From the sequence record DRR723986_5359: a DNA stretch of 45,123 nucleotides. One strand, 5' to 3'. The notes beneath the pieces are model-generated. The model was not told where the DNA came from and did no database searches. It saw only the letters and a program-made list of their open reading frames with translations. Position 1 is the stretch's first letter, and every line of letters starts with the position of its first letter. A program made the translations under genes and the position numbers. This document shows positions 6,174 through 35,025 of this stretch, piece by piece.

Positions 6174-7220
6174 ATGTACGTAAAAAGAAGATTCTCTTTT
6201 AGAAGTGTGATTAGATGGACTCGAAGAGAGCTCATTTTCTTTCTAATATTTGTGACCGCGGTCACCGCTTTATATGAAGCTTTAGACATCAAGTGGCTGC
6301 AGGTTCCCCTAGCACCTGTAGCACTGATTGGTACTGCCGTTGCCTTCATGGTTGGTTTCCAAAACAATGCCGCTTATGATAGAATCTGGGAGGCCCGTAA
6401 AATTTGGGGAGGAATTGTAAACGTTTCCAGAACTTTCGTGATAACTGTAAGAGACAGTTTTTATCTGCATAATAAAGATAAAGCCACTGACCAAAGCAAA
6501 GCCTTAAAAACAATTACCAATAGACATATCGCCTGGTTAACTACGTTGAGATATGCCATGAGGGCTAAAAAAGTATGGGAAACAGATTACGCAACATTTA
6601 AGGAAAAGGGTTTTCCGTATAACACTCCTGAAGATAATACGCCTTTAGAAGATGAAATTAAAAATTACTTATCGCAAGAAGAGTTTGACTATGTGATGAA
6701 GCAAGCGAATAAACCAAATGCCATTATTGGTTTACAATCAAAACATCTGAGAAAGCTATCGGATGAAGAAAAACTGTGGGAATTTTCATTACTTAATTTG
6801 CAACAGCTATTGCAAGAAATGACAGCCTTGCAAGGTAAGTCTGAACGAATTAAGAACTTTCCTTATCCAAAGCAATATGGGAGTATCGGTTATCATTTTG
6901 TTCATATATTCATGTGGTTATTACCCATGGCGATTATTCCCGCCTTTGCTCAAATAGGAGCTGATTTGGAATTAACGCATCCCATTGTTTCTGCAACTTT
7001 TGTTTGGTTAAATATTCCGTTTACGGTAATTGTTATTTGGGTATTTAATACCATGCTGCGAATTGGATTGGCTGGAGAAAATCCTTTTGAAGGTTCACCA
7101 AATGACGTCCCAATATCAAATATCTCAAGAGGAATTACTAGAGACGTTTTAGCTTTGATTGATGAAGATCCTGAGAATATGCCACCTGTATTTGAAAATA
7201 CCAATGATATTCAGATGTAA
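6174..7220 (+). CDS. Bestrophin-family (YneE-like) ion channel
   Basis: GFQNNAAYDRIWEARKIWGGIVN, ERIKNFPYP and ENPFEG..NDVP motifs; TM helices; TACTTTTG promoter box at 6145-6152. Confidence 0.9.
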   Translation: MYVKRRFSFRSVIRWTRRELIFFLIFVTAVTALYEALDIKWLQVPLAPVALIGTAVAFMVGFQNNAAYDRIWEARKIWGGIVNVSRTFVITVRDSFYLHNKDKATDQSKALKTITNRHIAWLTTLRYAMRAKKVWETDYATFKEKGFPYNTPEDNTPLEDEIKNYLSQEEFDYVMKQANKPNAIIGLQSKHLRKLSDEEKLWEFSLLNLQQLLQEMTALQGKSERIKNFPYPKQYGSIGYHFVHIFMWLLPMAIIPAFAQIGADLELTHPIVSATFVWLNIPFTVIVIWVFNTMLRIGLAGENPFEGSPNDVPISNISRGITRDVLALIDEDPENMPPVFENTNDIQM

Positions 7221-7225
7221 GGAAT

Positions 7226-8116
7226 TTATGGATGGACTTTAATTTCAACTCGGCGATTTTGAGCTCTGTCTTTTTCTGTTTGATTTGAATTGATAGGATT
7301 TACCTCACCATAACTTTCAATCGATACCCGCTCTGGTGGTAATCCGGCATCAATTAATGCTTGCTGCACTGCCATGACCCTTTGGGTTGATAGTTCGAAA
7401 TTATAAATTTCATTTCCGATTTTATCTGTATGGCCGTAAAGCAGGACTTTGTAATCTTTCTGGATCATCAAATAATTGATTAAACTGTCTATTTGTTCTT
7501 TGTACTGTTCTTGAATTCTGCTTTTATCCGTTTCAAAAAGAATATTTGTGAAGTGAGTGGTGTCCTTTTTTAAGGGGTTTTGATTGAGTAACAGAGGAGT
7601 TATTCCAATGAATCCTGGGTTGCAAGACGCTGCTCTACCATGTTGAATGATTATGGTGTCAACCTGATAATAACTGATTGTCAAATTCCCCCCTATTTCT
7701 GATATTGGAATAATCGCAGTTCCTTCAGTTTGGACATCTTTAAGTTGACTAAATATCGGAGTTCCTGAAAATTTTAAATGATCTACAAAACACTTGCCCA
7801 AACTATCTTGATTAATATCAAAAACGGAGAACTGAAGATCTACTTTTTCTGAAAAGATGAAAACGTATTCGTGAACAATTGAGCCTTTAGTAAAATTATT
7901 GATACCCGTTTGCACGTTTTGCCATCCTAAATTGGAATTGTCTAAATAGAGTCCTTTGACAGTTAAGTCTATTCCAGAGTTGTCGATATTTCGATAATGT
8001 CCACCATGTGAGTTTTTAGAATAGCCATCTAGGCCCCAATCGAATGATTGAGAGAATGAAACAAGCCCATTCAATAGGAACACGATAAGGCAGCATATTT
8101 GGGTTTTGAGTATCAT
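7226..8116 (-). CDS. Exported protein with C-terminal OmpA-like peptidoglycan-binding domain
   Basis: ILFETDKS..GHTDKIG..NFELSTQRV..SYGE..P..RAQNRRVEI; signal peptide from ATG 8116. Confidence 0.88.
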   Translation of the reverse strand: MILKTQICCLIVFLLNGLVSFSQSFDWGLDGYSKNSHGGHYRNIDNSGIDLTVKGLYLDNSNLGWQNVQTGINNFTKGSIVHEYVFIFSEKVDLQFSVFDINQDSLGKCFVDHLKFSGTPIFSQLKDVQTEGTAIIPISEIGGNLTISYYQVDTIIIQHGRAASCNPGFIGITPLLLNQNPLKKDTTHFTNILFETDKSRIQEQYKEQIDSLINYLMIQKDYKVLLYGHTDKIGNEIYNFELSTQRVMAVQQALIDAGLPPERVSIESYGEVNPINSNQTEKDRAQNRRVEIKVHP

Positions 8117-8200
8117 TTGAAGTTGATACAATCGGTGAAGGGGTAAGTTCAATTTGAAGAAAGATTAGTTCGTTCTGATATAGCTTGAGAATAGTTATCT

Positions 8201-9043
8201 CTATTCCCTCAATTCTTCTGGAATAATAAGAAGTGGAATGTCAGAATAATGAATCATTTGATCAGACAGACTACCATAGAAAAACTTAGCGATAAAGTTT
8301 TTATTTGTTTTTACTAACGCCAAAAGATCAGATTTATGCTCTGAAACATGTTCACTAATACCTGAAATATAACTATCGCTGAGAATAGATTTAAAGGATC
8401 TTCTTTGAACGGGTTCAAGTTTTGTTAAATTGGTTTTGACTTGTTCAATAACTTTAGCTCCGTTTTCTTTTTTATCTTCAGAACAAACATAAACCAATTG
8501 CAACTCGCTATTAAGTTTGGCACTTATGTGGTTAACAAAATTTAATGTAGCCTCATTTACATTTTCTAAATTTGCAGCAAAATCAATAGTTTTCAAAGAG
8601 TTGAGAGTAGAATTGACTGGAATCGCAAGAACGGGCGCAGTTGATACTTGGGTAATTGCGCTAGCATTGCTACCGAAAAATTTATTTCCTATGGATCCTG
8701 CCCCGGTTGTTCCCATGAGGACTAAATATGGGTTCTCTTCATGAATTAATTTTGGAAGCCAATCGGTTATATTTCCCGAGTAGAGTTTAGCACGACATTC
8801 AATGCCTTTTTCTGTTACAGCATCTCCAAGGGCTCGAAGTTTTTTTTCTGCTTCTTCTTCTATTTGTTTACTTTTTGCTAGAAGTGTATGCCCAGTTTGA
8901 TCAAAGGCATCCAGTTGGCTCAAATCGATAGAATGCACGAGTAACAATTCACAATTAAAAATCTCCGCAAGATGAATTGAATATTCGAATGCTACCTTAG
9001 AACATTCAGAGAAATCTGTTGGATGGATTATAATATTGTTCAT
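8201..9043 (-). CDS. Universal stress protein (tandem Usp domains)
   Basis: IIIHPTDFSECS, VLMGTTGAG..FFGSNA, and a second domain ending FYGSLS...PLLIIP. ATG at 9043 chosen. Confidence 0.92.
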   Translation of the reverse strand: MNNIIIHPTDFSECSKVAFEYSIHLAEIFNCELLLVHSIDLSQLDAFDQTGHTLLAKSKQIEEEAEKKLRALGDAVTEKGIECRAKLYSGNITDWLPKLIHEENPYLVLMGTTGAGSIGNKFFGSNASAITQVSTAPVLAIPVNSTLNSLKTIDFAANLENVNEATLNFVNHISAKLNSELQLVYVCSEDKKENGAKVIEQVKTNLTKLEPVQRRSFKSILSDSYISGISEHVSEHKSDLLALVKTNKNFIAKFFYGSLSDQMIHYSDIPLLIIPEELRE

Positions 9044-9177
9044 GTCTTTTTGTTTGTTGCGAAATATACCTGGGCGTAATATTAAAGTTAGCAATTTTAA
9101 AATTGTTATCTTAGACTAGGTTAACCGAACCATAAAATAGTGACATTTGGTCGTTAATCGTCTAATCATTTCAAATT

Positions 9178-9654
9178 ATGAAGAAAGCATTTATTGCAAT
9201 ATTTTTTTCGAGCTTGACCCTTATAAGTTTTGCTCAAAGTAAAGATTCACACTCTAAATTAGTTTCAAAAATTGAAAATGGTGAAGACCGTTTTAAGGGA
9301 ATACTTCAACTTTCGGCCTGTAGAAATTCTGAACGAAAAAATTGCTTAGTTGGAGGATGGAAAAAAATAGAAATTGTAACTAATTCAGGTGACATAACTG
9401 AAGTTAAGATTAACGATACCCTGACAATAGGTGTCGAAATATCCGCGCACAGTTTGGTCTGGAAGAAAGACAAATTACCGGTATTAGACGCTCATTTCTA
9501 CTCTAAAAAAGATGGAAAATGGGAGCTTTATGAAGATGAAGGTGAATTTGTGAGTACTTTAAGAGTAGGAAAAGCGTTGCCATTCAGAGGTTGGACATAC
9601 GTATCTGGTAAAGAGTTTTTACGATTAGATTTTTCCATCAAGCTTGAAGATTAG
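9178..9654 (+). CDS. Hypothetical exported protein
   Basis: 158-aa ORF with a clear signal peptide (MKKAFIAIFF..SFA-Q) and an A/T-rich leader; no recognised domain. Confidence 0.7.
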   Translation: MKKAFIAIFFSSLTLISFAQSKDSHSKLVSKIENGEDRFKGILQLSACRNSERKNCLVGGWKKIEIVTNSGDITEVKINDTLTIGVEISAHSLVWKKDKLPVLDAHFYSKKDGKWELYEDEGEFVSTLRVGKALPFRGWTYVSGKEFLRLDFSIKLED

Positions 9655-9669
9655 AGAATTTTTTCCAAC

Positions 9670-9696
9670 AAAAAAAGTCCGATCAAAGATCGAGCT
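9670..9696. terminator. Imperfect hairpin with A/T tract, probable terminator
   Basis: aaaaaaagtccgatc aaa gatcgagct; gives a T-tract on the minus strand. Confidence 0.45.
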
Positions 9697-9706
9697 GAAT
9701 TCGTTC

Positions 9707-9751
9707 TGAGGAGAGAGGAGGATTATTTCATGATCCCAAAGTCGTGGAACC
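9707..9751 (-). repeat. Degenerate copy of the tRNA-Ser 3' end with an insertion in the T-loop
   Basis: 9707-9724 tgaggagagaggaggatt matches 9874-9891 tgcggagagagggggatt at 16/18 nt; gaacc resumes at 9747 after a 22-nt insert. Confidence 0.65.
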
Positions 9752-9835
9752 TTGAACAAGCAAAATCAAAGTCGTTTCACTCTTCTTTTTTTACGCAATA
9801 ATTTGATGAAGCAAGCTTCTCAAATTCTATCACAC

Positions 9836-9864
9836 AAAAAAAGCCCAGCTAGTAGCTGGACTTT
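9836..9864 (-). terminator. Rho-independent terminator of tRNA-Ser
   Basis: Minus strand: aaagtccagct act agctgggc ttttttt. Confidence 0.75.
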
Positions 9865-9875
9865 GATTTCACTTG

Positions 9876-9962
9876 CGGAGAGAGGGGGATTCGAACCCCC
9901 GTTACAGTTTCCTGTAAACACGCTTTCCAAGCGTGCGCGTTCAACCACTCTGCCACCTCTCC
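9876..9962 (-). tRNA. tRNA-Ser (GGA)
   Basis: GGAGAGG/TCTCTCC acceptor stem, anticodon arm CACGC-TTGGAAA-GCGTG, long variable arm, GGTTCGAATCC T-loop; CCA not encoded. Confidence 0.97.
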
Positions 9963-10090
9963 GTATTTTTGCACGCTTTATATTGAGGCCGTGCGCGTTT
10001 CTCGGCTCAGCCGAGACCACCTCTCCGTATTTTTGCACGCTTTTTATTGAGGCCGTGCATTTCCCGAATTCATTTCGGGACCTCCACTTG
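9953..10090 (-). repeat. Tandem 64-bp-period repeat in the tRNA-Ser leader: degenerate tRNA 5' halves carrying palindromes
   Basis: 9953-9994 and 10017-10058 are identical at 41/42 nt. Spacer palindromes are tctcggct-c-agccgaga (10000-10016) and tcccgaa-ttcat-ttcggga (10062-10080). Confidence 0.9.
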
Positions 10091-10104
10091 AAGTTTTGCG
10101 TTTG

Positions 10105-10112
10105 CAAAACTA
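10105..10112 (-). promoter_or_regulatory. Bacteroidota -7 promoter element for tRNA-Ser
   Basis: Minus strand TAGTTTTG matches TAnnTTTG. Confidence 0.55.
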
Positions 10113-10315
10113 GTCATTTATCCGATAATACCTTGTACCTATCGAGAAAGCACTTTTTTACCATCACTTGAAATTGAAAATAATTTTTTTATTGTTAAAT
10201 TGCCAGTAAATATTGGGGCTTCGTTATTTAGTTGAATTTTTTTTTTGGATTGAATAGGGGGACACATTTGTTTGCACGACTTAATGAAAAAGGAAACAAT
10301 TTAAAATCAATTATT

Positions 10316-11021: not shown

Positions 11022-11054
11022 AAAGGGATTCATCTGAAGATGGATCCCTTTTTT
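11022..11054 (+). terminator. Rho-independent terminator
   Basis: aaagggattcatc tgaa gatggatccc tttttt. Confidence 0.8.
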
Positions 11055-11087
11055 GTTTGGTTACTATTTCAGTACTTTTGCCTCCTT

Positions 11088-11648
11088 ATGGTAAAAACGT
11101 TAAGTTCTATCCTTGTAATTGTAGCCGTTTTGTCCTGTACAGAACAAAATGAAAACATCCCTGAAGAAAAAGAAAATGTTGAGGTCATTGAGGACACAGA
11201 AACTCAACCTTCTAAAGTTGTTGAGCAAGACAACATTTCTATTGAGGTTTACGATTTTGAGAATATTCAACCCTTCATTTATAAAAGCAATGATCGTATT
11301 AATGTTGTGAATTTTTGGGCAACCTGGTGTGTTCCATGTATACAAGAATTGCCAGCCTTTGAAAAATTAAAGGCCGAAAATCCGGAAGTTGATATGACCC
11401 TTATTAGTATGGATTTTACGCAAAACATAGAGTCAGATCTAATTCCCTTTATTATAAAAAATAACATTCAATCAGACGTGGTTGTATTAGACGATCCTGA
11501 TGCCAATTCATGGATACCTAAAGTAGATGAGAACTGGTCCGGTGCTATTCCGGCAATAATTATATATAACAAGGATAAAAGAGTCTTTTACGAACGCTCC
11601 TTTACTTATGAAGAACTCGCAAAAGAAGTACAAAAATTTAAAAACTAA
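11088..11648 (+). CDS. TlpA/ResA-like thiol-disulfide oxidoreductase lipoprotein
   Basis: VVNFWATWCVPCIQELP, WSGAIPA cis-Pro loop, lipobox VLSC; ATG 11088 follows TACTTTTG. Confidence 0.9.
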   Translation: MVKTLSSILVIVAVLSCTEQNENIPEEKENVEVIEDTETQPSKVVEQDNISIEVYDFENIQPFIYKSNDRINVVNFWATWCVPCIQELPAFEKLKAENPEVDMTLISMDFTQNIESDLIPFIIKNNIQSDVVVLDDPDANSWIPKVDENWSGAIPAIIIYNKDKRVFYERSFTYEELAKEVQKFKN

Positions 11649-11651
11649 ACA

Positions 11652-12329
11652 ATGAAACAAATCAAATTAATCCTTCCCTTATTTCTTATAGCTTGTTCTG
11701 GACCAGCAGAAACCGAGGAAGAAACTGTAGAAGTAGATTCTGTAGAAACCACAATTAATAAGGAGGATATCGTCCTTGCTGAGTCAGGTTATTCTGTTGG
11801 TGATATGGCTGCGGACTTTAGTCTAAAAAACATAGATGATCAAATGGTCTCACTGAGTGATTATGAAGAAGCTAAAGGGTTTATTGTGATTTTTACATGT
11901 AACCATTGCCCTTTTTCAGTGGCGTACGAAGACAGAATAATTGCTTTGGATAAAAAATACAAGGAGCAAGGTTATCCTGTCATTGCTATTAATCCAAATG
12001 ATCCTGAGGTGAATCCTGATGATAGTTTTGAATTAATGAAAGTAAGAGCAAGTGAAAAAGGCTTTACCTTCCCATACCTATTTGACGAGGGGCAAGAAAT
12101 TTACCCGCAATACGGTGCTACAAAAACACCTCATGTCTATATCTTAGAGAAAACAGATGCAGGAAATAGAGTAGCATACATTGGCGCTATTGATGATAAT
12201 TCTAAGGAACCAGAAAATGTGACCGAGAAGTATGTAGAAAATGCAGTTGATGCCTTGTTGAATGGAAATCAGCCTGAACTTACCGAAACAGTCGCAATTG
12301 GCTGTAGTATAAAATTTAAAGAAGGATAA
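11652..12329 (+). CDS. Thioredoxin-family (AhpC/TSA-like) lipoprotein
   Basis: DFSLKNID, IFTCNHCPF, FPYLFDEGQ, GATKTPHVY, YIGAIDD, AIGCSIK; lipobox LIAC. Confidence 0.9.
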   Translation: MKQIKLILPLFLIACSGPAETEEETVEVDSVETTINKEDIVLAESGYSVGDMAADFSLKNIDDQMVSLSDYEEAKGFIVIFTCNHCPFSVAYEDRIIALDKKYKEQGYPVIAINPNDPEVNPDDSFELMKVRASEKGFTFPYLFDEGQEIYPQYGATKTPHVYILEKTDAGNRVAYIGAIDDNSKEPENVTEKYVENAVDALLNGNQPELTETVAIGCSIKFKEG

Positions 12330-12379: not shown

Positions 12380-13345
12380 TTAAGCTTTTTTCAAACCTAA
12401 TTCAATCAATCGCTCTGTTAAAAATTCACCTGCAGTCATGTCTGAATATTCTTTCGGATTCTCTGCTGTAACACAATCTTCTAAACATGTCAAATCCATA
12501 TCAGATCGTGGATGTAAAAAGAAAGGTGCTGAATATCTAGGCTTTGTCCAAGACTCTTCATTTGGGGTGATAACTTGATGCTGCGTAGACCTGAAACGGT
12601 TATTCGTTAAACGCGCTAACATATCTCCTATATTCACTACAATTTCATCATCTGCCGGGCTAACTGGAATCCATTGTCCGTCTAAAGATTGTGCTTGTAA
12701 ACCTTCGGCAGAACCACCCATTAGTAAGGTAATAAGGTTGATATCACCATGAGCAGCAGCTCTCACTGCCCCTTCTGGTATTTGTGATTTATCAGCAACT
12801 GGATAATAATGCAATAACCTCAGAATGGAATTTCCATTGTGGATTTTATCATCAAAATACTTTTCATCTAAACCTAAATATAAAGCCGTAGCTCTCAATA
12901 AGTTTCTTCCCGTATTTTCAAATGTCTCGTAAACCTTTTGCCCAACCGCTTCAAATTCAGTAATGGCATCAGGCCAAATATTATCAGGGTACTCTTCTGC
13001 AATAGGGTCATTATCAGAAACTGTTTGACCGATATGATAAAACTCTTTCAAATCCGGTACACTTTTCCCTTTAGCAGACTCCTTGTTTTTTGAAATATAT
13101 CCTCTTTGACCATGATTTGCCTCATCCTCATATTTCTTCTTAACGTCATCTGGAAGTTCAAAAAAGGCTTTAGAAACTTCGAACAATTTTGCTTTTAACT
13201 CTTCACTTACGCCATGATTTTTAACAATGGCAAAGCCCATGTTTGAAAATGAATCACCAAATTCTTTAATGAAATTGGATCTTTTAGCTGGGTCTCCTGA
13301 GGTGTAGTCGTGGTAATCAACTACTGCAATTTTATTCTTATCCAT
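12380..13345 (-). CDS. Isopenicillin N synthase-like 2-oxoglutarate/Fe(II) dioxygenase
   Basis: GFAIVKNHG, DLKEFY, HxD (AHGDINLIT), VNIGDML...HQV, RYS motif; ATG 13345 sits just after the clpX stop. Confidence 0.9.
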   Translation of the reverse strand: MDKNKIAVVDYHDYTSGDPAKRSNFIKEFGDSFSNMGFAIVKNHGVSEELKAKLFEVSKAFFELPDDVKKKYEDEANHGQRGYISKNKESAKGKSVPDLKEFYHIGQTVSDNDPIAEEYPDNIWPDAITEFEAVGQKVYETFENTGRNLLRATALYLGLDEKYFDDKIHNGNSILRLLHYYPVADKSQIPEGAVRAAAHGDINLITLLMGGSAEGLQAQSLDGQWIPVSPADDEIVVNIGDMLARLTNNRFRSTQHQVITPNEESWTKPRYSAPFFLHPRSDMDLTCLEDCVTAENPKEYSDMTAGEFLTERLIELGLKKA

Positions 13346-13346
13346 A

Positions 13347-14576
13347 TTATGCAATTTTTAACTTGGCCATTTTTGAACCTGCAAATTTAGACCGTGCGTA
13401 ATCAACTGTTATTCTTAATTCTTTCGTGTCTTTTTTAGAAGGGATTTCAAACATTGCGTCATTTAAAATCGCCTCACAAATAGACCTTAAACCTCTTGCT
13501 CCTAATTTATATTCAAGTGCTTTTTCAACAATAAAATCTAAGGTGTCGCCATCAATTTTTAAATCAACATTGTCTAAGCTAAAAAGATGTACGTATTGTT
13601 TGATCAATGAATTTTTTGGCTCTGTTAAAATTCTTCTCAATGCTGTTTCGTCAAGAGGATTGAGGTAACTTAATACCGGCATTCGTCCAATTAATTCAGG
13701 AATTAATCCGAAATCTTTAATATCAGATGGAATCACATATTGTAATAAGTGATCAGCATCTAATTTTTCATCTTTAGACGAGAAGCCAATCATATTGGTA
13801 TTCACCCTTCTTCCAATGATCTGCTCAATTCCATCAAATGCTCCACCAGCTATGAACAAGATGTCTTTTGTATTCACCTTAATCATTTTTTGTTCTGGAT
13901 GCTTTCTTCCTCCTTGCGGCGGAACATTAACTTCCGTTCCTTCAAGCAGTTTTAACATGGCCTGCTGAACACCTTCTCCTGAAACATCTCTGGTGATTGA
14001 TGGGTTATCAGATTTACGTGCAATCTTATCGATCTCATCTATAAAAACGATTCCTTTTTCAGCAGCCTCAACATTGTAATCAGCAGCTTGTAATAAACGA
14101 GATAAAATAGATTCAACATCTTCGCCAACATAACCTGCCTCAGTTAGTACCGTTGCATCTGCGATACAGAATGGTACGTTCAGAGATTTCGCAATGGTTT
14201 TAGCCAGCAAAGTTTTACCAGTACCTGTACGTCCAACAAGAATCAAATTCGATTTATCAATTTCTAGTTCCTCCTTGCCTTCAGCATAAGTCAACCTTTT
14301 GTAATGGTTATAAACCGCTACAGATAACACTTTTTTAGCCTCATCCTGACCAATTACGTACTCATCCAATTCTTCTTTAATTTGAATAGGCTTAAGTAAT
14401 CTGAAATCATGACTTACGTTGTCCGCACTTTCGTGCTTTTGCTGCTCTTCAACAATTTGATGAGCCTGATCAATACAGCTTGAACAGATATGACCCGTTA
14501 ATCCCGCAATTAAAATTCCAGTGTCATTTTTTGCTCTTCCACAAAATGAACAATTGATATTTTCTTCTGAACTCAT
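13347..14576 (-). CDS. clpX: ATP-dependent Clp protease ATPase subunit ClpX
   Basis: C4 zinc finger (CSFC..CSSC), Walker [39 protein letters not shown] loop, GARGLR. Confidence 0.99.
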
Positions 14577-16883: not shown

Positions 16884-17942
16884 CTAGAAATTCTTTGAAC
16901 CCTTTCTTTGGTCAAAAACATAGGTGTAAGATAAGGCCGGAATAGGAACTGGAAGTGCACCTTGATTCGCTATTGCAACTGCTAAGCCGGTTTGAAATCT
17001 GTGCTGTGGACTGGGTCCGAAACGCAGGGCTGCTGCACCAGTGACTATAGTGTTTCCGTTTCCAAAAGCTCCCATCAAGTCCATGACAATGTCCAGTTTA
17101 TATGATATATTGATGATACCGCCGAAATTCGCAATTCCATAATGGTCTAAAGTAAATACATCAGGTCCTTCTATAAAAAATCCTGTTGTATCATCCCAGA
17201 ATCCCATATTTCTCACTTGATGTATCATCCCATAACCACCTCTAATGGTGAAATTGGTTTTTCTATTACCAAAAGTGTATCCCACTGAAGCTAAGCCGCC
17301 TCCATTTGATGCGTTACTTCCAAATAAACTTCCAAAAATCATGCTCCCATACATCATGTCTACAGAAATATATGATGAATCAAAAAGCATAAAACTCAGT
17401 TTAGATTTCAATGCTAGGGGCGCACCCAAATAGCTTGTCATTACACCCATTGACCAATTTTTCATTAATGGAATTTGAGCTTCCAATCCCACAGGCATTA
17501 ACTTGACAAAAGCCTCTCCTCTCCTTAATGGATAAGCATTATCTGACTGAATATATTTGGTGGTGATTCTACTAGCGTAATCTTTTTCTTCTTCAGCTGG
17601 TGCAACAACTGTGTCTTTCGGTTCTTCATTTTTGACTTCTTGAACTGGATCTTTGGGATCTTCATTCGTATTGTCTTCGGTTTCTTTTTGCTGCTCTTTC
17701 ATATAATCAGCATGCGATTGAATTTTTTTAATCGAACTTTTAGGAATATAAATTTTCCCGATTTCTTCGGTATTCAATAATAATTCACGGCCGTCATCTT
17801 CTAATATAAAACCTGTGTACACGGTTCCATCATTTTTGATAACCACCATTTTCACCGGATCTTTGGTTCCATCATCTTGCGAAAATCCCGTATTGACAAA
17901 AGCCAACATGGTGAAAAAAATCAATAATATTTTAGCTTTCAT
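16884..17942 (-). CDS. Hypothetical exported, possibly outer-membrane, protein
   Basis: Signal peptide (GFS-Q), small beta domain (KNDGTVYTGFILE...IPKSSIKKI), acidic linker, then a Gly/aromatic-rich beta-strand region. Confidence 0.7.
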   Translation of the reverse strand: MKAKILLIFFTMLAFVNTGFSQDDGTKDPVKMVVIKNDGTVYTGFILEDDGRELLLNTEEIGKIYIPKSSIKKIQSHADYMKEQQKETEDNTNEDPKDPVQEVKNEEPKDTVVAPAEEEKDYASRITTKYIQSDNAYPLRRGEAFVKLMPVGLEAQIPLMKNWSMGVMTSYLGAPLALKSKLSFMLFDSSYISVDMMYGSMIFGSLFGSNASNGGGLASVGYTFGNRKTNFTIRGGYGMIHQVRNMGFWDDTTGFFIEGPDVFTLDHYGIANFGGIINISYKLDIVMDLMGAFGNGNTIVTGAAALRFGPSPQHRFQTGLAVAIANQGALPVPIPALSYTYVFDQRKGSKNF

Positions 17943-18046: not shown

Positions 18047-19201
18047 ATGCAGGAGAAAAAGAAAATAGCAATTATCGGATGCACGGGTTCAATTGGTACT
18101 CAAACCCTTGAGGTGATCGAACAAAACTTGGATAAGTTTGAGGTGATACTGATGTCGGCTCATAACAACGCTGATTTATTAATAGCTCAAGCATTGAAGT
18201 TCGTACCAAATACGGTTGTAGTGACGAATGAGGAGCATTATACAAAGGTAGAGGAGGTGTTATGGCAAGAAGATATCAAAACTTTTGCTGGTGAAAAAGC
18301 ACTAGAGGATGCAGTGCAAATGGATGAAATTGATTTGGTGGTTGCGGGAATAGTAGGTTATGCTGGATTAATGCCCGTGATTAAAGCCATAGAAGCTGGG
18401 AAAAACATAGCCCTTGCCAATAAAGAAACCCTCGTTGTTGCTGGTGAAATAATCACAAAATTGGCTCAAGAAAAGGGTGTGAATATCTACCCAGTGGATT
18501 CTGAGCATTCGGCGATATTTCAGTGTCTTGCCGGTGAGTGGGAAAATAAAATTGAGAAAATTATTCTCACTGCTTCTGGTGGTCCATTTAGGGGGTATTC
18601 AGCCGATCAATTAAAATCTGTATCAAAAGAACAAGCGTTAAACCATCCTCAATGGCAAATGGGTGATAAAATCACCATAGATTCGGCCACAATGATGAAC
18701 AAAGGCCTTGAAGTGATTGAGGCAAAATGGTTATTTGGTCTTCAGCCTGAACAGATTGAAGTAATTGTGCATCCAGAATCGATCATTCACTCTTTAATTC
18801 AATTTGAGGATGGGGCAATAAAAGCACAAATGGGCTTACCTGATATGAAATTGCCTATACAATATGCCTTATCTTATCCGAAAAGATATAAATCTAATTT
18901 CAAGCGATTTTCTTTTGCTGATTATTCGTCCCTTAACTTTGAAAAGGTGAATACGGATGTCTTCTCAAATCTCAAATTGGCATATGAATCTATTCGATTC
19001 GGTGGCAATTTACCGGCTGCTTTGAATGCTGCCAATGAAATAGCTGTATCAAAATTTTTGGATGACAAGATTAAGTTTCATCAAATTGCCTTGATAAACG
19101 CAGCAGTTTTGGATAAAATCGACCGTATCCAACAACCCAGTTTAGAGGATTTGGTTTTGACAGATAAGAAATCTCGGGAGCTGGCTGATCAAATCCACTA
19201 A
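18047..19201 (+). CDS. dxr: 1-deoxy-D-xylulose 5-phosphate reductoisomerase
   Basis: GCTGSIG, LANKE, PVDSEHSAIFQ, LTASGGPF, HPQWQMG.KITIDSATMMNKGLE; TACATTTG at 18032-18039. Confidence 0.98.
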   Translation: MQEKKKIAIIGCTGSIGTQTLEVIEQNLDKFEVILMSAHNNADLLIAQALKFVPNTVVVTNEEHYTKVEEVLWQEDIKTFAGEKALEDAVQMDEIDLVVAGIVGYAGLMPVIKAIEAGKNIALANKETLVVAGEIITKLAQEKGVNIYPVDSEHSAIFQCLAGEWENKIEKIILTASGGPFRGYSADQLKSVSKEQALNHPQWQMGDKITIDSATMMNKGLEVIEAKWLFGLQPEQIEVIVHPESIIHSLIQFEDGAIKAQMGLPDMKLPIQYALSYPKRYKSNFKRFSFADYSSLNFEKVNTDVFSNLKLAYESIRFGGNLPAALNAANEIAVSKFLDDKIKFHQIALINAAVLDKIDRIQQPSLEDLVLTDKKSRELADQIH

Positions 19202-19254
19202 TCTAATTGTTTGAAAGTAAGCGAATAAAAGTTATCTTTATTCAAATTTTTCCT

Positions 19255-20808
19255 ATGAAAAAAATCTTACTCGCTCTTGTATTGTTATCCTCAATATCAA
19301 TGCAAGCCCAAACAAAATGGTCAGAACACGCGGCTGCAGTTTTTTACGCCAATTGCACTGAATGCCATAATCCTAATGGGATAGCCCCAAATTCTTTAAT
19401 GACTTATAATGATGCGGTTACTTATGCACCATTAATCGAGTCATATGTTCAGAACAACATTATGCCTCCTTGGACTGCAGATACTTCTTATCAGCATTAT
19501 TCTCAAGAAAGAATTTTAACTCAAAATGAAAGAGATATTATTCTGAATTGGATTTCTGATGGAAATTTGGAAGGGGATCCTGCTCAGGCTCCACCACCGC
19601 CAGTTTATAACGGAGATCAAATTTTATCTGGTGTTCCAGATTTAGTGGTTACAGCTCCAAACTATATGAGTAAAGCAACGTCTACTTCTGATGATTACGT
19701 TTGTTTTACGATTCCAACGGGATTATTGGCTAATAAAAAAGTTAAGGCTTTTGAAGTGATTCCTGGAAATCGTCAAACCGTGCACCATGCTTTAGTTTAT
19801 CATGATGCAGCAGCTAGTACAACAACAGATAGTTCAGGGAATTGTGCAGGACCGGTATCTTCAGAATTAATGGGTGGATATACTCCTGGAGCAACACCAA
19901 CTATTTTCCCAGCTACTGGGTCTTTCGCAACTGGGATGGTGTTAGACGCAGGTTCTAATATTGTTTTGGCAATGCATTACCCAGCAGGATCTTATGGAGA
20001 GTTTGACCAAACTTCAGTCAATTTCTACTTTTACGAAGAACCTGTAGCCAACTTCAGACCGGTTTCTTGTGATCCAATTGTTCAAGATTGGAGTTTTACA
20101 ATTCCTGCAGATACTTTTGATTCAGTAGAAGTTGCGGCCGGGCCAATTCCAGCAAATTACACCATGTTGAGTGTTTTTCCTCACATGCATTTATTAGGTG
20201 ATTATATAGAAACATATGGGGTGACAGGATCAAATGACACTATGAATTTTGCAAGAATTCCGCAATGGGATTTTGATTGGCAAGATTTCTATTGGTTTGA
20301 GTATATGCAAAAAATTCCGGCCGGAACAATGGTTCACGGAAAAGGGATTTACAACAATACCGTTACAAATTCGCACAATCCAAACACACCTCCAATTGAT
20401 GTTTCCGCTGGCCTCAATACTTCAGATGAAATGTTCTTAGTCTATTTCCATTATATGCCTTATGAAAATGGAGATGAAAACATCAACGTAGATAGTTTAA
20501 CAACTGAGTTTTTATCTACCGGTGAAATTCAAAAGGATATTGGTTTTGTGACGGCTTATCCTAATCCATTTAATCAAACAGTTTCTATAGCATATAAGCT
20601 AGATCAATCAGCTTTTGTAACCCTTTATATCTATGATATGCAAGGTCGATTAACCAAAAAAGTTATTCGAGAACAACAGTCTGCCGGATTACATGAATTG
20701 AATTGGGATGGTACAAATGAACAAGGAGCTCCAGTGAGTAACGGCGTTTATTTTTATTCCATTAATGTTGGAGGAGATCAGCACTCTGGAAGGTTGATTA
20801 AAAGATAA
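19255..20808 (+). CDS. Probable T9SS-secreted protein: N-terminal cytochrome c-like domain + copper type II (PHM/DBH-like) monooxygenase + type A CTD
   Basis: Signal peptide; CTECH and MPPW; VHHAL, LAMHY, PHMHLLG, TSDEMF; C-terminal AYPNPF...IYDMQGR...WDG...GVYFY...LIKR. Confidence 0.8.
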   Translation: MKKILLALVLLSSISMQAQTKWSEHAAAVFYANCTECHNPNGIAPNSLMTYNDAVTYAPLIESYVQNNIMPPWTADTSYQHYSQERILTQNERDIILNWISDGNLEGDPAQAPPPPVYNGDQILSGVPDLVVTAPNYMSKATSTSDDYVCFTIPTGLLANKKVKAFEVIPGNRQTVHHALVYHDAAASTTTDSSGNCAGPVSSELMGGYTPGATPTIFPATGSFATGMVLDAGSNIVLAMHYPAGSYGEFDQTSVNFYFYEEPVANFRPVSCDPIVQDWSFTIPADTFDSVEVAAGPIPANYTMLSVFPHMHLLGDYIETYGVTGSNDTMNFARIPQWDFDWQDFYWFEYMQKIPAGTMVHGKGIYNNTVTNSHNPNTPPIDVSAGLNTSDEMFLVYFHYMPYENGDENINVDSLTTEFLSTGEIQKDIGFVTAYPNPFNQTVSIAYKLDQSAFVTLYIYDMQGRLTKKVIREQQSAGLHELNWDGTNEQGAPVSNGVYFYSINVGGDQHSGRLIKR

Positions 20809-20826: not shown

Positions 20827-20860
20827 AAAGGCCACTTGAATTTTCAAGTGGCCTTTTTTT
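20827..20860. terminator. Bidirectional terminator
   Basis: aaaggccacttgaa tt ttcaagtggccttt tttt, between convergent genes. Confidence 0.88.
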
Positions 20861-20894
20861 ATGATCGCATCTTTTGATGATTCAAAATTTGCTT

Positions 20895-21818
20895 TTATCG
20901 CCTCTTTTTTCCGGAGCCACCTCTGTTTTGACCTTTGTTACTTTTAACTTGCTTTTGATTGTTTGAATTTTTCTTGTTAGCGCCATTTCCCTGCTTTTGA
21001 TTGTTGGATTTGACATTACCGTTGCCTTTGTGGTGTCCATTGTTGTTTTTATGATGTCCATGTCCGTGTCCATTGTGATGGTTGTGACCTGCATGATGAT
21101 TATGGTGATGATGCTTGTGTTTATGAATTCTTACGCAAGTTCTTCTATTCGTTTTATAAAAACCGTGCGCTCTTCCACATCTCCTTACTTTCACAACATG
21201 AAAATGTGCTCTGTGGTGATGATGAAATCCGTGATAAGTTCTCCAACGATAGGGTCTCCAAGGTTTCCAGTAATTCGGATGATGATTCCAACGCCAAGGT
21301 GATCTCCAACGCACATACCCAGGCGCGAATACAAATCTTACTCCTCTCCATCCCCACACATTAACAATTATGCCTTGTGGAATCATTAACCGTTCAGTTA
21401 CAGCATCTGCTGTTTTTGGCTCAACGATATAATCTTCGCCATAAATTTCTTCGTCTCCAACTATTTGAATGGTCGCCTCATTATCGTCAGATTTTTCTAG
21501 CTCAATAACGGCCACATCTTGATCCTCGGTTTCGCTCATTGCTACGCGCAGAATGATGGCATGTGCATCTCCCTCGCCTTCATCATAAACAGAAATGTAA
21601 TCTACTTGATCGTCTTCATCCAAGTCTAGATTGTTGATTTTGTTATCCGGATCGTTGATGGTTTTTTCAAATGCTTCAACACTTTCAGCATCTTTAAACG
21701 CGTCTAGAACTGCGTATAGATCTAAATTATCTCCAATAACGCCCAATGAATCTTCATTTTGAGCAATTGATGGTAAACACCAGAGAAGTGCCCCAATAAA
21801 TAGTGATGTAAATTTCAT
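20895..21818 (-). CDS. Exported hypothetical protein with acidic N-domain and W/R-, His- and N/K/G-rich tail
   Basis: Signal peptide from ATG 21818; GDNLDL..INNLDLDEDDQVDY; tail WRSPWRW...HKHKHHHHNHH...NNQKQG. Confidence 0.8.
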   Translation of the reverse strand: MKFTSLFIGALLWCLPSIAQNEDSLGVIGDNLDLYAVLDAFKDAESVEAFEKTINDPDNKINNLDLDEDDQVDYISVYDEGEGDAHAIILRVAMSETEDQDVAVIELEKSDDNEATIQIVGDEEIYGEDYIVEPKTADAVTERLMIPQGIIVNVWGWRGVRFVFAPGYVRWRSPWRWNHHPNYWKPWRPYRWRTYHGFHHHHRAHFHVVKVRRCGRAHGFYKTNRRTCVRIHKHKHHHHNHHAGHNHHNGHGHGHHKNNNGHHKGNGNVKSNNQKQGNGANKKNSNNQKQVKSNKGQNRGGSGKKRR

Positions 21819-21938
21819 AGTCAAAAGTTTTCGTGCCTTTCGGCTTGTTCAACTCTTTGACTTGACAGGTTTAAAAAGGTTTAATTACTTGGGAATAAAA
21901 CTTTTATACTCTATCAACTATTTAATTCCTAAATCGAG

Positions 21939-31931: not shown

Positions 31932-32140
31932 AATAGCTAATATAAAAACGCTTTACTTCTTTTATAAGTAAGTGCAATATTAAAACTTCCAAAAGAGATA
32001 AACAAGCTAAAACCTATTTTTTTCTGTTGGTCAAAGGTTTAGTCAAAGATAATATCCTTTAGAACTTCTCCTACTTAATAAATTTAATTTATATTTGGAT
32101 TTAGATAATTAAGAGCTATTTGAATTTTCAACACTTGAGT

Positions 32141-33883
32141 ATGAATATATTAAAGAAGATAAGTTTAATTCCAGTTGCGGCACTTTTGTTTGCTTGCGGT
32201 GGCGATTCTGAAAATACGACTAATGAGACCGGAGAAGAGTCAATTTACGGTGGTGTATTCTCAATGCCAGTGGGTAGTTATTTTAACTGTATTAGACCAA
32301 TTGAGGTACAAAAGCTAGAAACTGCACAAGTTTATGATCAAGTTCTTGATGGTCTTGTAAAATTTAATCCTAAAACTCTAGAAGTTGAGCCTGCTCTTGC
32401 TTCTGAATGGACAATCTCTGAGGATGGAAAGACTTACGTGTTTACACTTAGGGATGACGTATATTTTCACGATAATGCATGTTTCGCAGACGGTAAAGGA
32501 AGAAAGTTAGAGGGCTCTGATGTTGTCTATTCTTTTGAGAACATTTATACGAAAGAAGCTACGAATCGTGCCTATACTAACTTCACAAATACCGTGGTTG
32601 GAGGAGAAGAGTTTTACAATGGAACGGCTACTGAAATTTCAGGAATTTCTGTTGACGGAAATAAAGTAACAATTCAAATTCTTGAACCGAGTTCGGTATT
32701 TATTCAAAAGTTGGCTACTGTTTTTGCAACGATAGTGCCTTATGAGTCTTTTGAAACTGGTGAATATGTGCCTGTTGGAACAGGGCCTTTTGCATACGAT
32801 AAAAGCTCTAACTCTGAATTGGTTAAATTATACAAAAACCCGAATTTTTATGGTAAAGACGCTGAAGGAAACCAATTACCTTACTTAGATTCAGTTCAAT
32901 TCAAATATTACGAGAATTCGGATGATCAAATGGATTTATTCTGGGAAGGTGGTTTGTCTTATATTCCTAACGTTCCAATTACAAGTATTTCTGAAGTACT
33001 TGAAGAAAGAATTGAAGATTTCGAGAGCAATCCACCGAAATATATGTTGGTTTCGCAACCACAATTGTCTACTACTTATCTTGAGTTCAACATGCAAACG
33101 CCTGTTTTGAAAAATAAAAAAGTAAGACAAGCCATCAATATGGCTGTAAATAGAAAGAAATTGGTTGAAAAAATCATGAAAAATCAAGCCTACGAAATTG
33201 GTAAGTTCGGAATCACACCTCCACTTCCAAAAGTATTTGCTGATTATGATTTTGAAGGAATTGAAGATGTAGCTTATTCTTACAATCCAGAAGAAGCGAA
33301 AAAATTGTTGGCTGAGGCGGGATATCCAGGTGGTAAAAACTTCCCATCACTTTCTATGCAATTTAGATTAGGAAACGATCACTACTTAGTAGCATCTGAA
33401 ATTCAAAATCAATTAAGATCTGTATTGAATATCAATATTGAAATTGAAGGTGTTGAGTTCAATCAATTAATTGAAAACCAAGCAATGGGTAAAGCGGATA
33501 TCTTTAGATCTACCTGGTTTGGTGATTTCCCTAACCCTGAAACATTCTTAGTAAACGCTTACGGTAAAATCGTTCCAGATAGTAAAGATCTGCCTTCATA
33601 CATGAACAGTTCAAGATATGTTAATCCTGCTTTTGATGAAGCGTTTGAAAGAGGAGCACAGTCAGGAAATCAAGCTGAAGGTTATGCAGCGTTTGCAGAA
33701 GCTGAAAAAATCTTAATGGAAGATGCGGCGTTCATCATGTTATGGTATGGTGAAGACATGATGTTACTACAATCGAATGTAAGAGATTTAGAAACGAACG
33801 GTATCAGATTTTTAGATTTAAGATCGGTTTATTTCAAGACGCGAACTGCTGAAGAAAAAGACAAGAATAAAGCTGAAAGCTAA
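32141..33883 (+). CDS. ABC transporter substrate-binding lipoprotein, family 5 (peptide/nickel)
   Basis: Lipobox FAC-GG from ATG 32141; EPALASEWTISEDGKTYVFTLR, PVGTGPF, KVRQAINMAVNR, YNPEEAKKLLAEAGY; TATATTTG at 32090-32097. Confidence 0.92.
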   Translation: MNILKKISLIPVAALLFACGGDSENTTNETGEESIYGGVFSMPVGSYFNCIRPIEVQKLETAQVYDQVLDGLVKFNPKTLEVEPALASEWTISEDGKTYVFTLRDDVYFHDNACFADGKGRKLEGSDVVYSFENIYTKEATNRAYTNFTNTVVGGEEFYNGTATEISGISVDGNKVTIQILEPSSVFIQKLATVFATIVPYESFETGEYVPVGTGPFAYDKSSNSELVKLYKNPNFYGKDAEGNQLPYLDSVQFKYYENSDDQMDLFWEGGLSYIPNVPITSISEVLEERIEDFESNPPKYMLVSQPQLSTTYLEFNMQTPVLKNKKVRQAINMAVNRKKLVEKIMKNQAYEIGKFGITPPLPKVFADYDFEGIEDVAYSYNPEEAKKLLAEAGYPGGKNFPSLSMQFRLGNDHYLVASEIQNQLRSVLNINIEIEGVEFNQLIENQAMGKADIFRSTWFGDFPNPETFLVNAYGKIVPDSKDLPSYMNSSRYVNPAFDEAFERGAQSGNQAEGYAAFAEAEKILMEDAAFIMLWYGEDMMLLQSNVRDLETNGIRFLDLRSVYFKTRTAEEKDKNKAES

Positions 33884-33900
33884 ACCACTGACATCTTTTC

Positions 33901-35025
33901 ATGGCCGGAATTTATTTGCACATTCCTTTTTGCAAAAAGAAGTGCCATTATTGTGATTTTCATTTCTCAACCAATTTATCCAGTGTCCAAAATATGGTGG
34001 ACGCTATATGTCGTGAAGCAACGTTAAGAAAACATGAGTTGCATTCTGACTTAATTGAAACCATTTATTTCGGTGGCGGAACGCCATCTGTGCTTTCAGA
34101 AATTCAACTCAACCAATTGCTCAATTGTTTGAGAGACAATTTTCAAATTATTGAAACCCCTGAGGTTACTTTTGAAGCCAATCCCGAAAACCTAACAAAG
34201 GCTTATCTGTCCAGCCTAAAATCTGCAGGAATAAATCGGTTAAGTATTGGGTTACAATCTTTTGATGATGAAGTGTTGAAAACAATGAATCGTGCACACA
34301 ATGCTGAGGACTCTTTAAACTGTGTTCAACTGGCGGTTGAAATGGGATTTAAATCTATATCTATTGATTTAATTTATGGTATCCCTGATAGAGATTTGGG
34401 ATATTGGAAAACCCAGGTAGAGTGCGCACTGAATCTTGGTGCCAATCACATATCTGCCTATTGTCTCACTATTGAAGAAAATACAGTTTTTGCTCATTTA
34501 GAAAATAAAGGAGATTTAAAAATTCCGGAAGATGACGAAAGCTTACAACAGTTTCAATACTTGGTCAACGAACTTGCCGCACATGATTTTGAGCAGTACG
34601 AAATCTCTAATTTTGCATTGACCGGTGGTATATCCAAACATAATTCGTCCTATTGGTTGGGTAAAAAATATGTGGGATTAGGACCTTCGGCTCATTCTTT
34701 TAATGGATCTGAAAGATCTTGGAACATAAGGAATAATCCACAATACATTAGACAAATAAATGACAATGAACTGCCTTCAGAAAAAGAAGCTCTAAGTTCT
34801 GAAGATAGATTTAACGATTACGTTTTAACGAGATTAAGAACAAAGTGGGGACTTGAAATGAGTGTTTTAGAAAACATGATGAAGTCCTTACAGCATCCCA
34901 CCTTTGAACAAGAACTAAATACCCATTTAAGCAATAACAATCTAAAAAGAAATGAAGGGCACATTTTCTTGACGGACAAGGGAAAGTTCATTGCTGATAG
35001 AATCGCCTCAGATCTTTTCGTTTAA
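33901..35025 (+). CDS. hemW: Radical SAM heme chaperone HemW
   Basis: YLHIPFCKKKCHYCDF, YFGGGTPS, YEISNFA, and the HemW-type HNSSYW motif. Confidence 0.92.
   Translation: MAGIYLHIPFCKKKCHYCDFHFSTNLSSVQNMVDAICREATLRKHELHSDLIETIYFGGGTPSVLSEIQLNQLLNCLRDNFQIIETPEVTFEANPENLTKAYLSSLKSAGINRLSIGLQSFDDEVLKTMNRAHNAEDSLNCVQLAVEMGFKSISIDLIYGIPDRDLGYWKTQVECALNLGANHISAYCLTIEENTVFAHLENKGDLKIPEDDESLQQFQYLVNELAAHDFEQYEISNFALTGGISKHNSSYWLGKKYVGLGPSAHSFNGSERSWNIRNNPQYIRQINDNELPSEKEALSSEDRFNDYVLTRLRTKWGLEMSVLENMMKSLQHPTFEQELNTHLSNNNLKRNEGHIFLTDKGKFIADRIASDLFV

Follow-up and report, generated by a model that had tools for sequence, protein, structure and literature searches.

Peptidylglycine alpha-hydroxylating monooxygenase (PHM) and dopamine beta-hydroxylase (DBH) are the textbook examples of the non-coupled two-copper enzymes, and their roles in animals concern amidated peptide hormones and noradrenaline, respectively. 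Here we describe a bacterial gene whose product combines a catalytic core of this type with a c-type cytochrome domain and with signals for export through the T9SS (type IX secretion system). The gene is located at 19255..20808 on the forward strand of a 45,123-nucleotide stretch of DNA from sequence record DRR723986_5359, the whole of which is referred to below as the window. By its fold and its ligands the encoded protein belongs with the copper monooxygenases of the PHM, DBH and tyramine beta-monooxygenase (TBM) group.

For PHM, the available part of PMC12164859 gives H107, H108 and H172 as ligands of the H site (CuH) and H242 and M314 as ligands of the M site (CuM), and it describes a salt bridge between R240 and the C-terminal carboxylate of the peptide substrate. 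According to the same text it is still debated, for PHM as well as for DBH, by which route electrons reach CuH from the donor and are then passed to CuM. We propose that the gene product described here is a self-contained, exported redox enzyme, in which haem c would reduce CuH and CuM would activate O2 in order to hydroxylate a substrate other than a glycine-extended peptide. In our judgement this proposal has an even chance of being correct.

The open reading frame (ORF) starts with an ATG and encodes a precursor of 517 amino acids, followed by a stop codon. In the ORF list the same frame extends to a TTG at 19207 (533 amino acids, 19207..20808), but the ATG at 19255 is favoured, as all 39 of the 39 aligned homologues begin at the same Met, in the form of MK or MR. 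The translation contains all the motifs that were listed in the initial annotation, i.e. CTECH (residues 34-38), MPPW (70-73), DDYVC (146-150), VHHAL (176-180), VLAMHY (237-242), FPHMHLLG (308-315) and TSDEMFLVY (389-397). The protein has a four-part layout, consisting of a signal peptide, a c-type cytochrome domain, a two-domain copper core of the PHM/DBH type and a T9SS type A tail. NCBIfam holds no family-level model that covers the whole 517-residue protein. The initial annotation had already read a PHM-type core with a complete copper ligand set, a haem c domain and a type A tail from the letters of the DNA. This assignment is borne out for the core by the fold match, the profile alignment with DBH and the near-invariant ligands, for the haem domain by a conservation equal to that of the catalytic domains, and for the tail by two profile matches above their cut-offs.

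The copper core and the haem domain

An AlphaFold2 model of the whole protein was built on 70 homologues. It reached a mean predicted local distance difference test score (pLDDT) of 92.9 and a predicted template modelling score (pTM) of 0.76, and its confidence was low solely at residues 425-429, which belong to the linker that leads to the tail. Four helices are seen within residues 22-101; two all-beta domains come next, and the beta-sandwich tail forms the end. In a structural comparison with Foldseek, the matches in the PDB at ranks 1 to 31 were all PHM or DBH (E 6.7e-14 to 6.4e-10), with template modelling (TM) scores of 0.56-0.65 normalised on the target and a sequence identity of 13-17%. 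The matches after rank 31 were unrelated and had E-values of 7.6e-6 or worse. With PHM itself (PDB 1phm, 1opm, 8dsl) the protein shares the fold of two beta-sandwiches, the best E-value of the search and TM scores of 0.59-0.65 on the target, whereas the sequence identity is restricted to the range given above.

In searches of the PDB with a single sequence, the whole protein retrieved only tail-like chains and the core alone gave no match. A profile of 40 homologues retrieved human DBH (4zel_A) at an E-value of 4.9e-4, and a core-only profile, made from 40 related loci, retrieved the same chain at 2.8e-8; DBH is the only solved protein matched by the family profile. The alignment of the profile with DBH pairs HH with HH, MHY with VHY, PHMH with LHTH and DEM with EEM, and in the core-only profile the nearly invariant Gln343 of the family is aligned with a Gln of DBH. 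In Pfam, Cu2_monoox_C (PF03712) matches residues 304-402 of the protein itself with 29.0 bits, above its cut-off of 23.

The CuH domain, the N-terminal of the two beta-sandwiches, comprises residues ~119-265 (19609..20049), with an approximate boundary that was drawn from Pfam, the strands of the model, Foldseek and the DBH alignment. It contains the ligand pair H177-H178 (19783..19788), which pairs with the HH of DBH, and the third CuH ligand H241, within MHY (19975..19977), which pairs with the HY of DBH. The CuM domain, the C-terminal sandwich, comprises residues ~266-421 (20050..20517) on the basis of Cu2_monoox_C, Foldseek and the DBH alignment. Here the ligands are the two His of H310-M311-H312 (20182..20190), equivalent to the HTH of DBH, and the Met of D391-E392-M393 (20425..20433), equivalent to the EEM of DBH. 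The arrangement is the same as in PHM, with HH plus a further His at CuH and HxH plus a Met within a D-E-M motif at CuM.

These residues are among the most conserved of the family. In an alignment of 70 sequences that are 30-87% identical to the query (A2), only 20 columns are invariant, and these include C34, C37, H38, M70, P71, H177, H178, H241, H310, H312, E392 and M393; chance can by no means account for the motifs. A ligand census was made with 269 fetched proteins that were aligned to a hidden Markov model of the family, 250 of which span both C34 and M393. All ten proposed ligands are intact in 247 of these 250 relatives, the exceptions being P0258, P0257 and P0266; the haem set (two Cys, His and Met) and the copper set (five His and Met) are each complete in 248. 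The individual copper ligands are found in 248 (H177), 248 (H178), 249 (H241), 248 (H310), 250 (H312) and 248 (M393) relatives. A core of the PHM/DBH type with a complete and nearly invariant set of CuH and CuM ligands is thus supported by fold, profile and conservation.

The census also bears on the idea that the protein is no enzyme at all, but serves for adhesion at the surface or for the binding of metal or haem, with an old catalytic scaffold simply retained. A T9SS tail and a FlgD-Ig-like fold are common in adhesins, and the copper ligands have been lost in two relatives, P0257 and P0266. However, unless redox chemistry is under selection, it is difficult to see why the ten ligands should be present in nearly all relatives across 30-87% identity, and we regard a non-enzymatic role as highly improbable.

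The c-type cytochrome domain comprises residues 19-118 (19309..19608) and ends in a Pro-rich linker (APPPPV). Its haem c attachment motif CTECH (C34, C37 and H38; 19354..19368) is invariant in the 70 sequences, as are M70 and P71 of MPPW (19462..19473), in which M70 is the candidate distal haem ligand. None of the 250 core-spanning relatives lacks the domain, and C34 is present in 249, C37 in 250, H38 in 250 and M70 in 249 of them. The mean identity to the query in alignment A1 is 0.65 for the haem domain, 0.66 and 0.62 for the two copper domains and 0.47 for the tail; in A2 the corresponding values are 0.47, 0.43 and 0.44, and 0.28.

The profiles Cytochrome_CBB3 and Haem_bd each match 40 of the 40 haem-domain members at E<=0.1 (best 1.9e-5), and M70 falls within the C-terminal part of the Haem_bd profile. 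In two distant relatives, P0154 (34.1 bits) and P0175 (37.1 bits), Cytochrome_CBB3 passes its cut-off of 27. When a profile of the haem domain was compared with the PDB, the best match was CcoP, around the CxxCH motif (E 0.0035). Since the conservation of the domain equals that of the copper domains and cytochrome matches are found throughout the family, we conclude that it is best read as a true, if divergent, c-type cytochrome module on which selection acts as it does on the catalytic core. An extra N-terminal domain before the CuH domain is also found in DBH. There, however, it is a DOMON module, according to the available part of PMC12164859, and DBH has a dimerisation domain, where the query has a secretion tail.

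Sorting signals and substrate pocket

The N-terminus of the protein resembles a signal peptide and the C-terminal tail is rich in beta structure, as read from the translation. Residues 1-18 (19255..19308) form a Sec signal peptide of the kind found in T9SS cargo, which was recognised by eye: a hydrophobic core is followed by MQA|Q, and cleavage is likely to occur before Q19, which is invariant in 40 homologues. Cleavage before a Gln is known as the 'Q-rule' of the Bacteroidota. At the other end, a flexible linker of residues 422-434 (20518..20556), with a pLDDT below 50 at 425-429 and a mean identity of 0.16 in A1, leads to a T9SS type A C-terminal sorting domain of residues 435-517 (20557..20805). 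This domain is matched by TIGR04183 of NCBIfam (44.2 bits, cut-off 23), by Por_Secre_tail of Pfam (PF18962; residues 435-511, 27.9 bits, cut-off 27) and by FlgD_ig (E 1.3e-11), and its matches in the PDB include PorU and C-terminal domain (CTD) chains. The combination of an N-terminal Sec signal with a CTD above both cut-offs is that of the T9SS type A cargo of the Bacteroidota. The protein differs from that cargo in that it would be a covalent haem c cuproprotein, and we know of no characterised T9SS cargo of this kind, although no search was aimed at this point.

The architecture of the relatives is variable after residue ~415. A T9SS tail closes the sequence in 13 of 21 longer relatives, and in nine it is preceded by PKD/Ig-like spacers, as would be expected for surface-displayed enzymes. 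Among the distant relatives, P0175 carries fused AhpC-TSA and thioredoxin-like domains and P0154 carries EF-hands.

The initial annotation had placed a Phe where PHM has its carboxylate-binding Arg, and this holds: in PHM, R240 precedes H242 by two residues, and the corresponding position, two residues before the HxH motif, is F308 (20176..20178). Among the 250 relatives the eight commonest residues at this position are Phe (147), Ala (27), Leu (26), Ser (9), Met (8), Thr (7), Gly (6) and Tyr (5), all of them hydrophobic or small, and the other 15 could include a rare Arg. DBH, in which the profile alignment places a Gln at this position, likewise has no Arg before its HxH motif. Four residues after the Met ligand the protein has a Tyr, as does PHM; this Y397 is conserved as Tyr in 160 and as Phe in 44 of the 250 relatives, and it is the putative equivalent of the PHM Tyr that also contacts the peptide carboxylate. 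The second-shell residues E392 (250 of 250) and Q343 (246 of 250) have been kept. Among the relatives the pocket is variable at positions 308, 395 and 397.

Judging from these residues, the protein is not PHM proper, because the Arg240 feature is absent. It also differs from PHM in its bacterial origin, in the N-terminal haem c domain and the T9SS tail, and in that it has no PAL partner domain. Because Phe replaces the Arg that binds the carboxylate in PHM, the substrate would not be a glycine-extended peptide; a pocket that is unlike that of PHM and variable within the family would fit a substrate other than peptidylglycine. The substrates of different paralogues may possibly differ.

In another reading, such a monooxygenase would act not on an environmental nutrient or signal but on the envelope of its own cell, where a surface protein, lipid or polysaccharide would be modified during export. 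This is in line with the surface tethering that the available parts of PMC9143113 and PMC8545088 describe as typical for type A cargo of the T9SS. Related genes were compared in 80 loci, almost all from metagenome-assembled genomes (MAGs) and isolates of Crocinitomicaceae and other Flavobacteriales, and in 21 of these the gene is fixed in position next to dxr, unlike the usual niche-specific catabolic loci. On the other hand, several genomes have extra paralogues, some in tandem (locus L047; Crocinitomix catalasitica), which together with the variable positions 308, 395 and 397 suits a diversification towards varied external substrates. Moreover, no envelope-biogenesis gene is consistently adjacent in the 80 loci, and we consider modification of the own envelope to be distinctly unlikely.

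A proposed mechanism

For a monooxygenase that acts on an external substrate we envisage the following course of events. Export by the Sec system would remove the signal peptide of 18 residues. In the periplasm, haem would be bound covalently to C34 and C37, its axial ligands being H38 and M70. Two coppers would be loaded there as well, CuH via H177, H178 and H241 and CuM via H310, H312 and M393. Once folded, the holo-protein would pass through the outer membrane by the T9SS, via its type A CTD, and would be released or remain tethered to the surface. There, the haem c domain would take up single electrons from an outside donor and pass them to CuH, a role that is played by ascorbate for the animal enzymes, and CuM would bind O2 and hydroxylate a substrate, either extracellular or on the surface, at one of its C-H bonds.

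The cytochrome domain of cellobiose dehydrogenase is known to feed electrons to the copper of lytic polysaccharide monooxygenases (LPMOs). This pair would be the closest functional analogy, as in both cases a copper oxygenase that acts outside the cell would be supplied with single electrons by an extracellular haem domain. The folds are unrelated, however, and the pair consists of two separate proteins, with a haem b and with a single copper in a histidine brace.

The same cofactors could also serve in an oxidase or electron sink, in which electrons from the haem would be used via copper to reduce O2 or reactive oxygen or nitrogen species and no organic substrate would be hydroxylated; alternatively the flow might be reversed, from a substrate via copper and haem to an acceptor. 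A set of one haem and two coppers would suit such a function, as would the lack of a residue recognisable as substrate-binding where PHM has Arg240. In addition, the 80 loci show no linkage of the gene to functions in catabolism or transport, the gene is conserved across a family as a single copy that accompanies dxr, tig and leuS in the manner of a housekeeping gene, and the fusion partners of P0175 (see above) are AhpC-TSA and thioredoxin-like domains. Nevertheless, the characterised members of the fold family are all substrate-coupled monooxygenases, as far as general knowledge and the available part of PMC12164859 go. The retention of the CuM Met with its second-shell residues E392 and Q343 points in the same direction, and the Tyr (or Phe) four residues after this Met suggests that a substrate pocket has been preserved. 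We therefore rate an oxidase or sink function as rather unlikely.

Several results weigh against the exported monooxygenase itself. Its main difficulty is the electron donor: none for the haem is encoded near the gene, either among the ORFs of the window or in the 80 loci. To our knowledge there is also no donor able to reduce haem outside the outer membrane. In the same 80 loci no cytochrome, copper chaperone or reductase is conserved beside the gene, and this lack of a conserved partner gene fits a self-sufficient fusion.

Part of the profile evidence falls short as well. Of the three Pfam profiles by which the initial annotation had wanted the domains to be checked, Cu2_monoox_C and the Por secretion tail pass, as described above, but Cu2_monooxygen (PF01082) matches residues 133-242 with 17.1 bits (E 0.0064), below its cut-off of 30. 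This cut-off is exceeded in the relatives P0166 (42.1), P0162 (34.1) and P0156 (32.9) and is approached in P0151 (28.7), and we attribute the shortfall to divergence because the fold and the ligands are present. The query's own matches to the cytochrome models (Cytochrome_CBB3, Haem_bd and Cytochrom_C) are weak and sub-threshold in Pfam; with the haem domain alone, Cytochrome_CBB3 reached 21.0 bits (cut-off 27) and Cytochrom_C 18.6 bits (cut-off 21.3). A model of the isolated haem domain, with a pLDDT of 74.2, had no significant match in Foldseek (best E 0.7); cytochromes c6 top this list, which at such E-values is only suggestive.

With respect to location, no component of the T9SS machinery (Por/Gld/Spr) was found among the annotated ORFs of the window. 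Furthermore, the tail-less relatives P0250 (424 amino acids) and P0269 (429 amino acids), which have a different amino-acid composition, keep all haem and copper motifs, so that the conserved function does not depend on an extracellular site. These two are probably periplasmic versions from other phyla. The combination of haem domain and copper core is thus the constant unit of the family and the T9SS tail an add-on, since the architectures vary past residue ~415 and the tail-less forms retain every motif.

Genomic context and the family

The window represents an ordinary piece of chromosome, with tig, clpP, clpX, dxr, leuS, a gene for a Fe/Mn superoxide dismutase (sod), purD and ATP synthase genes. 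The upstream neighbour, dxr, encodes 1-deoxy-D-xylulose 5-phosphate (DXP) reductoisomerase (18047..19201, forward strand; three Pfam DXP domains, E 1e-37 to 1e-42) and is not part of the enzyme. Its end is separated from the ATG by 53 nucleotides (19202..19254), and no terminator-like site is found between the two genes. Downstream, a terminator-like hairpin (20827..20863, both strands) lies between convergent genes and has a stem of 13 pairs, six of them G-C, with T-rich tails on both strands; on the strand of the gene, the hairpin and its T-run occupy 20827..20856. Terminator-like sites as such are not above chance in the region (three found, against a mean of 2.4 in shuffles).

The TAnnTTTG box is the promoter consensus of the Bacteroidota. 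An exact copy is absent from the 53-nucleotide gap, and such boxes occur at chance level overall (58 found, 60 expected), as do sigma-70-like sites (11 found, against a mean of 10.8 in shuffles). From this arrangement co-transcription with dxr seems plausible.

The initial annotation had called co-transcription with dxr probable; the short gap and the hairpin after the gene, on which it relied, are present, but the adjacency itself looks like family-level synteny and not like the signal of a functional operon. The 21 loci with dxr directly upstream all encode a protein of at least 51% identity, and in these loci tig (18), leuS (14) and sod (11) keep their places. A functional link to dxr was rejected because the adjacency travels with these genes and occurs only among the orthologues nearest to the query. 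In one of the loci (L001), which encodes a relative of 99% identity, the gene order is the same as in the window. The neighbours found in the 80 loci were of a housekeeping kind only; apart from dxr, the commonest within 4 kb are genes for an S41 peptidase (in 30 loci), for a hybrid histidine kinase (in 26) and for a dCMP deaminase (in 22).

Some other ORFs of the window were recorded alongside. Convergent with the gene lies an ORF of 309 amino acids (20895..21824, reverse strand), which begins like a signal peptide, is acidic in its central part and has a very high content of His, Asn and Lys in its C-terminal tail. No Pfam match was obtained for it at E<=1e-4, and it may encode a metal-binding envelope protein; it was found downstream in four of the 80 loci with tblastn, which is probably an undercount owing to its low complexity. 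Between tig and dxr an ORF of 352 amino acids (16884..17942, reverse strand) with a signal peptide has no Pfam match, and its position is kept in 11 of the 80 related loci at 25-90% identity. Two adjacent ORFs of the thioredoxin-fold/AhpC-TSA (TlpA-like) type lie 7 kb upstream of the gene on the forward strand (11040..11648 and 11652..12329); domains of this type are also among those fused in P0175. A 2-oxoglutarate (2OG)-Fe(II) oxygenase (DIOX_N and 2OG-FeII_Oxy) is encoded at 12380..13354 on the reverse strand, its 3' end overlapping the start of clpX by eight nucleotides. Finally, a gene for a solute-binding protein (SBP_bac_5) is directly followed by one for a radical SAM protein at 32120..35025 on the forward strand.

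The initial annotation had suspected that homologues might already be present in the databases, and they are, in large numbers. Of 8000 candidates that were scored in a word-indexed search, 1959 proteins reached E<=0.001, with a best identity to the query of 87%. They appear in their sources as 'T9SS type A sorting domain-containing protein', 'Cytochrome c domain-containing protein', 'mono/diheme cytochrome c family protein' or 'hypothetical protein'. An exhaustive search of representatives at 50% identity gave 164105 matches at E<=0.001, a figure that is inflated because the tail domain is common, 12076 at 1e-10 and 1413 at 1e-30, the last set still including a number of tail-like proteins with many repeats (in P0149, for example, 15 stretches were matched). 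When one genome per species was counted, at least 563 of at least 602 motif matches encoded relatives. The ESM Atlas holds only unnamed clusters, with Bacteroidota and Pseudomonadota as their most frequent sources. A literature search that did not extend to most subscription journals gave no paper on a bacterial fusion of cytochrome c with PHM or DBH. The family is large, real and conserved, and it is apparently unstudied, being abundant in the databases under uninformative names.

Within the family several individual copies stand out. Locus L047 has two adjacent copies (7055..8620 and 8666..10246). Three proteins named for Crocinitomix catalasitica (P0097, P0105 and P0116), which are 69-74% identical to each other, are all listed for one contig of 7357 bp and are distinct from the dxr-linked copy of the same species (L019). 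P0257 and P0266 have kept CxxCH and lost several copper ligands, and they may be degenerate or re-purposed copies; P0266 has 1423 amino acids, with many PKD/Ig-like domains and a T9SS tail.

If the proposed reading is correct, a natural fusion with haem c would allow the delivery of electrons to CuH, and the disputed transfer from CuH to CuM, to be triggered and followed optically. It would also provide a bacterial counterpart, on a single polypeptide, of the pair formed by cellobiose dehydrogenase and LPMO. Tentatively, and with somewhat less than even confidence, we see in the protein the founding example of a large, ascorbate-independent bacterial branch of the PHM/DBH enzymes. In this branch haem c would be the built-in point of electron entry, and its members in the Bacteroidota would be exported by the T9SS and oxidise substrates outside the cell. 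As the family is abundant in aquatic Flavobacteriales, the substrate could matter for the turnover of dissolved organic matter.

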